DNA from: a virus
Lineage: Duplodnaviria; Heunggongvirae; Uroviricota; Caudoviricetes
IMG/VR virus record: IMGVR_UViG_2721755710_000007
Location: 1 to 64,000 of that record
Reading direction: 5' to 3' (one strand)
Length of the DNA stretch: 64,000 bases
The notes under the pieces are model-generated. The model was not told where the DNA came from, made no database searches, and saw only the letters and a list, made by a program, of their open reading frames with translations. Of the stretch, positions 21,646 to 24,296 are shown one piece after another; within the stretch, counting starts at the first letter, position 1; every line of letters begins with the position of its first letter. Position numbers and translations under genes: made by a program.

Positions 21646-21894
21646 TCAGTCAGCATTTAGTAGCAGAGCATTATCTATGATGATCTGCTCCCATTCTTCG
21701 AATGCCCGGTCGCGGACGCCCTGGGGAACGCTGTTTGTTTTGAAATCGACGACCGTCCGCCATTTCCCGTCCGGACGGTACATGCGCAGAGCTTTACTTC
21801 CCCCTTCCCTGCGCACCTCAACGTTATGCTTGTCAGCAAACTCTTGTAATGCTCGTAGCGTCCCATGCTTTACTGTGTAGTATCGCTTTTTCAA
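21646..21894 (-). CDS. hypothetical protein (82 aa)
   Basis: Last gene of a three-gene minus-strand cluster; overlaps the upstream gene by 4 bp. Confidence 0.4.
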   Translation of the reverse strand: MKKRYYTVKHGTLRALQEFADKHNVEVRREGGSKALRMYRPDGKWRTVVDFKTNSVPQGVRDRAFEEWEQIIIDNALLLNAD

Positions 21895-22331
21895 GTTTTC
21901 TCTCCAGCCTGTGCCAAGGCTTCAACTTCCAAATCGTAAGACTCAAACTCATAGTCCTGGTCGTCAACTTCTTCAGGGACTGGCAGTAAATGCCAGGCTG
22001 AGTATATCTGACCATTATCAAAACGCTCCTGGCTGTAGAGCGTCGCGGCTATGAGTGTTAGCGCCGGGCGGTCATAACGGTAAAATTTGCGAACGTCACG
22101 GTCAACGAGACGACCGAAATTACCATAACCGCGCTCCAGTAATAATTTTTTAATTTCCGGCCAGTATGGGCCATAGCTGCGGTACAGGCGGGGATTTTTC
22201 AGTAATCGCCCGCGTAGCCCTGACAGGAAGAAATCAACGTATTCGTCTTCTGTCTTTCCTAACAACGCTGTACGGAGTACCGCCTCAAGATATGTTTTAT
22301 TCGGTTTTATTGTATCAGATAGTGTGGCCAT
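21891..22331 (-). CDS. hypothetical protein (146 aa)
   Basis: Middle gene of the cluster. Confidence 0.45.
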   Translation of the reverse strand: MATLSDTIKPNKTYLEAVLRTALLGKTEDEYVDFFLSGLRGRLLKNPRLYRSYGPYWPEIKKLLLERGYGNFGRLVDRDVRKFYRYDRPALTLIAATLYSQERFDNGQIYSAWHLLPVPEEVDDQDYEFESYDLEVEALAQAGEKT

Positions 22332-22364
22332 ATTATGCGACGCCCGGCGAACCGGGCGCTCCTG

Positions 22365-24296
22365 TTATGCGTATTGTTGGATGACGGCCAGAACGTCCGC
22401 CACGTTGTGTTTTGTCTCGATAATCCACCAGTTGCCCGGGAAATCGCTGTTCTTCGCCTTCGCTGGCAGCCAGCGAGCGCCGAATTTTTCCTTGATTGCG
22501 TCTTTAGCACGGAAAAGAACGCCTTTCATGCCGGACGCCTCCTGAAGCCCAAATACCTCACCAGCGGCGAATTTTGGTGCGTACATCATCTTCAGGTCGG
22601 CGGTGGATACGCGATAATTCAGACCAAGAGACTGAGCTATGCTGGTGGCATCACCCTGTATTGATGATAACTCTTCTTGTTTCTCGTTTCTGGCGGCAAT
22701 TTCTTCCTCCGTGATGTTGCCTAGGGCCAGGTTTATCCGATCAGCGTCGGCCTGTTTCTCTTCATCGGTGCGCCCGGCAAGAACCGTGTTAATTCTCTGC
22801 AATATCTCAACATGATTCTTGCGCATGCTAAGCAATTCCGGCGTAACCTCGTTAAGGTCCACCAGCCCAAGGATGGCAAGGTCGGAAAACATTGATACCA
22901 GGTTGTAGGTCATGCGATAGCTGAGTTGCCCATAGGCTGATGGCAACTGCACCGCATCCATTTGATAGGCATCCATAAATTTAGAGCCGTCGTTTACGAC
23001 ATCCGCAATTGCCGGTGTGATTTTCCCTGTGGTGGCGGCCTCCCTGATTGCTGTTACCCACGATTGAGTCAGCGCGGCGACTGCATGATTCAGATTGGCT
23101 TTCCGTTCTGCTGCAATACGCGCGCTTGCAGCGTCCATTGCCTGCTTGATCTCGTCTTTATTGCTGTAAATGCCAATGGTGCCAAACTGTGCTGTGGTGA
23201 TCTCATAATCTGACGCCCGGAACTCATGGGTACCGAAAATGGCATTGGTGACCTCAAGTTCAGAATCCCCGTTACGAGTAGCCCCCTGGCTTGTTTTCTC
23301 CGGCATTCTGGCGATCGCATCCGCTATTGTCTCCTGAATTGCTTCAGGGGATAGCGTATCTCCGTATGACGCGATTACTTCGCCATAATTGGAGCCAAAC
23401 AGTTCAGTCAGGAATACTTCTGCCAAACGGACCTGGCGGTTATTCCCTTCCGACATCATACCAAGCACCCATTTTGCAATTGACGACTTCAGCGCGCCGT
23501 CACGGCGATCCGGGTAAACCGCATGCTTCAGTGGGTCCGTATAGGTACCAACAAAATCAATGCTATAGCCTGACTCTGTAGTCTGAACGCCGTATGAGTC
23601 AGTGATTTTGATCATGCCGCGCTGCTGGAAACGGTAGAAATCGTCACAGGAAATGATGTCGTTAATCCCGGCGATGGAGACGCCACCACTGATTTTCTGC
23701 ATAACAGCATCTTCATCGGGAGTTACATCCACCTGTTTATCCAGCGTCTTCACATCCCAGTTACCCGATTTGGTGCCTTTGAAGGTAAAGATGATCTCCA
23801 CGTCTGCGCGCTGGCTGTCGAAGTCCAGCGACTTAATGCGAACGATATCACCGGCACAATCGTAGTATTGGCCTACACGCCATGAGCGATCGCCGATAAC
23901 AAGGAACTCATTCGCATGGTTAACCAGATCAGGATCAACATCCAGAATGCCTTTATTTATTGCATCCTCCACCAGCGGGCGCAGGCGTTTGATATCCGTC
24001 GCGGCCTTCTGAGTACGGTTCAATAATTTCTCATAGCGGGAGATGGCTTGAGTGATATTAGCCTTGCGCTGAATGGCGCTTTTCAACGACGCGCGATAAT
24101 GTGCTAACAACGTACGGTCTGTGTGATGGACGCTACCCCAGCGGGCCTTCCAGTCTGCATTATCAGCTGCTTTGGCCATTAACTGGAGTGCCATCAGTAC
24201 CAAGAACAGGAGCACCTCCCACGCTAATAGACTGGCCCCCTGAATCTCACCGTTCTGAAACCACAACAAAAAAACATCAGGAATAAAAAACACCAC
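22365..24296 (-). CDS. hypothetical 643-aa protein (true start may be internal; size fits a P1 DarA-like head protein, unverified)
   Basis: Long ORF with backbone-like GC content; N-terminal 40 residues hydrophobic and may be over-extension. Confidence 0.5.
   Translation of the reverse strand: MVFFIPDVFLLWFQNGEIQGASLLAWEVLLFLVLMALQLMAKAADNADWKARWGSVHHTDRTLLAHYRASLKSAIQRKANITQAISRYEKLLNRTQKAATDIKRLRPLVEDAINKGILDVDPDLVNHANEFLVIGDRSWRVGQYYDCAGDIVRIKSLDFDSQRADVEIIFTFKGTKSGNWDVKTLDKQVDVTPDEDAVMQKISGGVSIAGINDIISCDDFYRFQQRGMIKITDSYGVQTTESGYSIDFVGTYTDPLKHAVYPDRRDGALKSSIAKWVLGMMSEGNNRQVRLAEVFLTELFGSNYGEVIASYGDTLSPEAIQETIADAIARMPEKTSQGATRNGDSELEVTNAIFGTHEFRASDYEITTAQFGTIGIYSNKDEIKQAMDAASARIAAERKANLNHAVAALTQSWVTAIREAATTGKITPAIADVVNDGSKFMDAYQMDAVQLPSAYGQLSYRMTYNLVSMFSDLAILGLVDLNEVTPELLSMRKNHVEILQRINTVLAGRTDEEKQADADRINLALGNITEEEIAARNEKQEELSSIQGDATSIAQSLGLNYRVSTADLKMMYAPKFAAGEVFGLQEASGMKGVLFRAKDAIKEKFGARWLPAKAKNSDFPGNWWIIETKHNVADVLAVIQQYA

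Follow-up and report, generated by a model that had tools for sequence, protein, structure and literature searches.

Identity of the three-gene cluster

Which genes form the compact minus-strand cluster at positions 21646-24296 of the Caudoviricetes record IMGVR_UViG_2721755710_000007, and what can they still do? It consists of three open reading frames (ORFs) of 643, 146 and 82 codons. A preliminary description, made from the sequence alone, had left their function unknown and considered the largest a possible counterpart of DarA, an antirestriction head protein of phage P1. The question was followed up in the window, i.e. the whole analysed stretch of 64,000 nucleotides (positions 1 to 64,000 of the record).

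The three coupled ORFs are present exactly as described before, with an overlap of 4 bp (21891-21894) between the last two and a spacer of 33 bp between the first two (Table 1). The G+C content was 0.50-0.51 over 22001-24000 compared to 0.32-0.38 in the flank 20001-22000, and the earlier remark on a "backbone-like" composition holds; the cluster belongs to the P1 backbone. Positions 21650-24181 of the window aligned without gaps to positions 9754-12285 of P1 (NC_005856) with 98.2% nucleotide identity (45 mismatches in 2,532 nucleotides), a match which, at the sequence level, is far beyond chance. There, the P1 record lists on the minus strand lxc (9750-9998, "modulator of C1 action; former name bof"), ulx (9995-10435, "Ulx-like anti-restriction") and darB (10469-17236, 2,255 amino acids). 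With megablast, the region was found on E. coli IncY/P1-like plasmids, where c1, cre, ref and terminase genes flank it.

The 146-residue protein was identical to P1 Ulx in 145 of 146 positions (H101Q) and matched phrog_1629 ("Ulx-like anti-restriction") with an E-value of 1.9e-65. The 82-residue protein was identical to P1 Lxc throughout (82/82) and matched phrog_2160 over its full length (E=7.8e-57). Pfam and NCBIfam scans with all three proteins gave no significant match, only a sub-threshold hit to Par3_HAL, and no RNA family of Rfam was detected within 21400-24900. The identification was settled by PHROGs, which led to Ulx, Lxc and DarB-type families, together with the direct comparison to P1. 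The label "unknown function" fails because the ORFs are the known P1 genes lxc and ulx and a fragment of darB.

With high confidence, the cluster can be regarded as that end of the P1 genome which carries lxc, ulx and darB, located on a defective P1-derived (IncY) plasmid of E. coli. This confidence refers to the explanation as a whole, namely the P1 identity, two rearrangements and the proposed fates of Lxc, Ulx and the darB stump. The locus itself is already known, being P1 lxc-ulx-darB with a shortened darB, and holds nothing outside known biology.

Table 1. Positions of the cluster and associated features in the window.
Feature	Position	Strand	Remarks
c1 repressor gene, Lxc partner	12473-13324	-	uninterrupted ORF; 283/284 positions match P1 c1.100 reference, stop included
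lxc (formerly bof), 82 amino acids	21646-21894	-	TTG start; intact; putative co-repressor modulating C1 repressor
sigma-70 promoter P1lxc (inside ulx), predicted	21939-21967	-	-35 TTGACG and -10 GAGTCT identical to P1 10043-10071
sigma-70 promoter P2lxc (inside ulx), predicted	22117-22145	-	both hexamers identical to P1 10221-10249
sigma-70 promoter P3lxc (inside ulx), predicted	22262-22288	-	-35 identical; one -10 change, CATTGT to CGTTGT, compared to P1 10366-10392
ulx, 146 amino acids	21891-22331	-	ATG start; ORF intact; Dar-system head protein aiding DarB localisation
643-residue ORF	22365-24296	-	GTG start
darB 3' remnant, codons 1651-2255 and stop	22365-24181	-	593/605 amino acids identical to P1 DarB 1651-2255
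2,123-bp deletion junction	24180-24181	-	2-nucleotide TA microhomology; base-by-base comparison with pSTK39-3-E-B
darB relic, 29 bp (P1 about 14409-14437, DarB codons about 934-943)	24182-24210	-	out of frame in the ORF
IncFII repA4-flanking DNA	24211-24296	-	source of the spurious GTG start and of most of the hydrophobic "extension"

The 643-codon ORF and darB

In BLASTP, residues 39-643 of the largest ORF matched residues 1651-2255 of P1 DarB with 593 of 605 positions identical (98%) and an E-value of 0. In tblastn against phages, residues 42-643 corresponded to the 3' end of darB from P1, P7, RCS47, SJ46 and others with 97-98% identity. The DarB-type families of PHROGs aligned to the ORF through their C-terminal parts only.

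DarA was considered as an identity of this ORF and rejected, as the best BLASTP E-value against P1 DarA was 0.46. A DarA-like internal head antirestriction protein, accompanied by accessory genes analogous to ddrA and others, would agree with the size (643 vs. 639 amino acids) and the P1 context. The likeness in size is, however, a coincidence of where the deletion in darB fell. Downstream lie ulx and lxc instead of ddrA and ddrB; upstream, a RepA4 remnant is found and none of lydA, lydB and hdf. From the window, the darA operon region (P1 24542-31183) is missing in its entirety. The DarA reading can practically be dismissed; what stands of it is the link to the Dar system. The lack of upstream holin and antiholin genes, which the preliminary description had already pointed out, is in line with the darB-ulx-lxc locus rather than with the lydA-lydB-hdf-darA-ddrA-ddrB operon.

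Full-length P1 DarB contains an N6_Mtase/Eco57I domain (residues 145-290), a SNF2/ResIII domain (833-911) and a Helicase_C domain (1455-1517). The catalytic domains are all lost from the remnant because they lie upstream of DarB residue 1518 and the remnant begins at 1651. Accordingly, the N6-adenine methyltransferase and both helicase domains are missing, the homology is restricted to the C-terminal ~600 residues, and no Pfam or NCBIfam domain was found in the 643-residue product. The promoter PdarB (P1 17292-17322) is gone from the locus as well. In a RefSeq plasmid with the same sequence, the NCBI Prokaryotic Genome Annotation Pipeline (PGAP) annotates a pseudogene, "incomplete; missing N-terminus", directly beside a RepA4 remnant. 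Judged from these alignments, the ORF is a chimeric frame containing a darB gene fragment and is no member of the functional DarB family.

Codons 1-38 of the ORF do not represent coding sequence inherited from DarB, and the earlier suspicion that the hydrophobic N-terminus is probably untranslated was well founded. The DarB relic next to the junction reads GAPVLGTDGTPV in the DarB frame and LLFLVLMALQL in the frame of the ORF. By this frame comparison, the 38-residue "extension" is a by-product of ORF calling and not genuine coding sequence. Neither the GTG nor Met35 or Met40 of the ORF is preceded by a Shine-Dalgarno-like motif. The stump would be inert because it lacks methyltransferase, helicase, PdarB and a convincing ribosome-binding site.

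How the darB stump arose

Base-by-base comparison with the closely related plasmid pSTK39-3-E-B (NZ_CP162200.1, L010 in the comparison) shows how two rearrangements produced the stump, a cargo join followed by an internal deletion. In the first step, IncF-derived cargo with a repA4 remnant, a Phd/YefM-RelE toxin-antitoxin pair and an autotransporter was joined to darB at P1 14437 and replaced everything upstream of DarB codon ~934; in L010, the P1 homology starts at position 4849, which equals P1 14437. In the second step, 2,123 bp within darB were deleted, by which codons ~944-1650 were removed and the frame was shifted (2,123 mod 3 = 2). Window position 24180 corresponds to L010 4879 and 24181 to L010 7001; the window lacks L010 4878-7000 and is collinear with it on both sides. 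An in-frame deletion of 2,121 bp, as derived from BLAST coordinates, was rejected after this inspection.

The join brings together two plasmid types and insertion sequence (IS) elements lie nearby, as would be expected if P1-like and IncF contigs had been fused into a chimera during assembly. When PLSDB was probed, the first, parental junction was found in 154 plasmids. The second recurred, as an identical junction of 110 bp, in 35 complete plasmids that had been sequenced independently; the hosts of the latter include chicken (poultry), human, pig and fox. Because both junctions recur in this way, the join is real and clonal, and an assembly artefact is close to impossible.

On the cargo side, window positions 24211-24689 match the region downstream of repA in IncF plasmids with ~92% identity, and PGAP places the RepA4 remnant on the plus strand at about 24314-24565. 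More than 5,000 matches to IncF plasmids had at first suggested an origin from the IncF leading region; this was discarded, as the matches were due only to the repA4-flanking DNA at 24211-24689. A search of the literature for shortened darB genes on P1-like plasmids gave nothing but spurious hits.

Lxc and the C1 circuit

The lxc gene lies just downstream of ulx with its own predicted sigma-70 promoters inside ulx, as in P1. Compared to P1, it differs by nine synonymous and no nonsynonymous codons, a pattern that is consistent with purifying selection. P1 Lxc binds C1-operator complexes, raises the affinity of C1 and stops Coi from dislodging C1, and the lxc promoters are constitutive and outside C1 control (PMC8546580). 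Eleven C1 operator-like sites were detected in the window, while 0.36 were expected by chance. Their locations coincide with those of OpmgT, Olpa, Oc1, Oc4, OrepL, Odmt and Oban.

Based on its complete identity to the P1 protein, Lxc should act as a co-repressor here too. It is probably still working, given an intact c1, the eleven C1 operator-like sites and the conservation of its own promoters. It would be made from the constitutive promoters inside ulx and form a ternary Lxc-C1-operator complex, which would tighten repression by C1 and block Coi. In this way, Lxc and C1 could keep the residual lytic genes kilA, repL, ban and lpa silent and stabilise the plasmid. Lxc would then be the sole working gene of the cluster.

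Ulx and the missing Dar system

Ulx is a virion head protein that aids the localisation of DarB, and loading of the Dar proteins starts with Hdf/DarA, followed by DdrA, DdrB, DarB and finally Ulx (PMC9024508, PMC12810830). As in P1, ulx is encoded between darB and lxc, and no promoter is annotated between PdarB and ulx in the P1 record. The 33 bp that separate the stop codon of darB from the start of ulx contain a GC-rich hairpin (22336-22360, minus strand) whose loop is TTCG (GCGCCCGG-TTCG-CCGGGCGT). The same hairpin occurs in P1; no T-run follows it, and it might serve as an mRNA stabiliser or processing element.

By sequence, the gene product is Ulx, but neither an intact DarB nor the Hdf/DarA-dependent capsid loading that belongs to the system was found. 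The window follows the P1 order from 82232 round through lox to 70107, and ~11.3 kb of cargo with copies of IS1 (24182-35476) take the place of P1 12286-42919 (30.6 kb). Lost with this segment are the 5' part of darB, prt, pro, lydD/E, lyz, ssb, ddrB, ddrA, darA, hdf and lydA/B/C as well as cin, the S/R/U tail-fibre genes, gene 16, bplA, pmgA and part of sit. Apart from IS1, P1 12286-42919 was not found in the window or in positions 1-108644 (at least 95%) of the 113,939 bp of the near-identical plasmid p22Q34-2 (NZ_ON934557.1), which additionally carries a multidrug-resistance region and type I hsdMSR. Its last 5.3 kb (108645-113939) correspond to window ~7745-12400, which maps to the P1 phd-pac region.

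Judging by its gene content, the element is a defective P1-derived plasmid because P1 12286-42919 is absent and pacA also seems internally deleted. Ulx is probably orphaned because DarB is destroyed and neither Hdf, DarA, DdrA and DdrB nor the portal and tail fibres are encoded in the window or in the searched part of p22Q34-2. Both the stump and ulx have probably been kept for no other reason than that they flank or contain the lxc promoters and that the deletion happened recently.

Several points weigh against an inert stump and an orphaned Ulx on a plasmid that has lost these genes. The frame of the stump is still open without further decay. A promoter-like site (ATGACA-16-CATAAT, 10/12 matches) at 24405-24378, ~80 bp upstream of the GTG, may allow some transcription of stump and ulx. 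Ulx may have a role that is independent of DarB, and the search of p22Q34-2 for relocated P1 genes covered 108.6 of 113.9 kb.

Two of these points, the open frame and the promoter-like site, would also agree with an expressed C-terminal DarB fragment, started at the GTG, Met35 or Met40 and possibly anchored in the membrane, that forms a functional module with Ulx, e.g. against type I restriction or superinfecting P1. The same architecture has been kept in 35 plasmids from poultry, humans, pigs and fox, and the plasmid itself carries a type I system. However, the promoter scan gave three promoter-like sites compared to 4.6 expected from shuffled sequence, i.e. no excess, none of the three possible starts is preceded by a ribosome-binding motif, every recognisable catalytic domain is gone, and PGAP treats the remnant as a pseudogene. 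As the remnant is ~99.9% identical to the longer one of pSTK39-3-E-B, recent clonal descent explains its persistence. An expressed module is therefore considered very unlikely.

A shade less likely still is a DarB-independent and virion-independent role of the stump, possibly with its hydrophobic leader, and/or Ulx in the plasmid state, for example in modulating the plasmid's own type I restriction-modification system or in excluding incoming P1-like phages. If it were true, selection and not recent clonal descent would keep the frame open in the 35 plasmids. An inert stump beside an orphaned Ulx and a working Lxc remains the preferred explanation.

Other features of the plasmid

The cargo at 24182-35476 contains the Phd/YefM-RelE/ParE pair (24795-25330), an autotransporter of 1,165 amino acids (26190-29687), an IS3-family element and IS1 copies at 31169-31936 and 34726-35495 with an IncA/C-type mobI/traI fragment between them. 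On the right, where P1 sequence resumes inside sit (P1 42920), the junction borders directly on an end of IS1 and points to an IS1-mediated deletion.

On the other side of the cluster, P1 homology breaks off only a few bases from where lxc stops. The EcoP1 res-mod module (P1 3337-9749) is replaced by low-GC DNA (0.32-0.38) at 19775-21645, which encodes an EAL-domain protein of 229 amino acids (19963-20652, minus strand) and an AraC-type helix-turn-helix protein whose gene is annotated as frameshifted by PGAP (ORFs 20874-21386 and 21446-21607). An IS1 copy and an IS5 fragment (13760-15464) are inserted at P1 94516/94518; this site falls within imcA, next to lox and a short way upstream of the coi-c1 immunity operon.

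In pacA (P1 90529-91722), the BLAST blocks jump from P1 90890 to 91529 at window ~10771-10773, implying a deletion of ~640 bp. This appears to be another indication that the element is unable to package DNA. Type I hsdM/hsdS/hsdR (~2252-7851) replaces P1 84483-87969 (pmgT to humD). By BLAST coordinates, the hsdS region is ~608 bp shorter than that of p22Q34-2, and the missing stretch is flanked by a repeat of ~490 bp; it may represent an hsdS specificity variant.

Within 40638-40844, 44292-44466 and 63018-63168, Rfam detected the P1 C4 antisense RNA with its a1/b1 targets, a sok antitoxin RNA and two tRNAs. The hok/sok module stands where P1 has rlfA/rlfB. The parA gene (52830-53768) is only ~65% identical to P1 parA, while its flanks reach 97%; this divergence indicates a putatively different partition/incompatibility type, consistent with the IncY typing of related plasmids.

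Significance and comparison with known systems

The importance of these results reaches little beyond a correct annotation of the cluster. The proper labels are lxc, ulx and darB pseudogene (3' fragment), in place of "hypothetical", "peptide-binding protein" or "DEAD/DEAH box helicase". A long frame that happens to be open across a rearrangement junction can be mistaken for a gene. The junctions mark a widespread P1-derived plasmid lineage (154 PLSDB plasmids with the first, 35 with the second) without the DarB arm of the Dar system, and in the element studied here, the darA operon is missing as well, together with many virion genes. The immunity circuit of C1 and Lxc was kept, which fits a phage-plasmid decaying into a plain cargo plasmid.

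The closest system is the lxc-ulx-darB locus of P1 (NC_005856, 9750-17236). Gene order, strand, the 4-bp lxc/ulx overlap, the 33-bp ulx/darB spacer and the lxc promoters are the same or conserved, with identities of 98.2% for the nucleotide sequence, 100% for Lxc, 99.3% for Ulx and 98% for the DarB C-terminus. In contrast to P1, the window retains only codons 1651-2255 of darB, without PdarB, methyltransferase and helicase, and the EAL-domain and frameshifted AraC-type genes follow lxc instead of EcoP1 mod/res.

P1 DarA, encoded in the lydA-lydB-hdf-darA-ddrA-ddrB operon, belongs to the same Dar antirestriction system and has 639 amino acids compared to 643. It shares no sequence similarity with the ORF (E=0.46), however, and is encoded at another locus by an operon that is missing from the element. 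Plasmid pSTK39-3-E-B has the same cargo joined at P1 14437 and the same ulx/lxc/EAL/ref context and is >99% identical to the window. It differs in its darB remnant, which comprises 1,296 amino acids ("helicase-related protein") and still contains Helicase_C, whereas in the window another 2,123 bp are gone.

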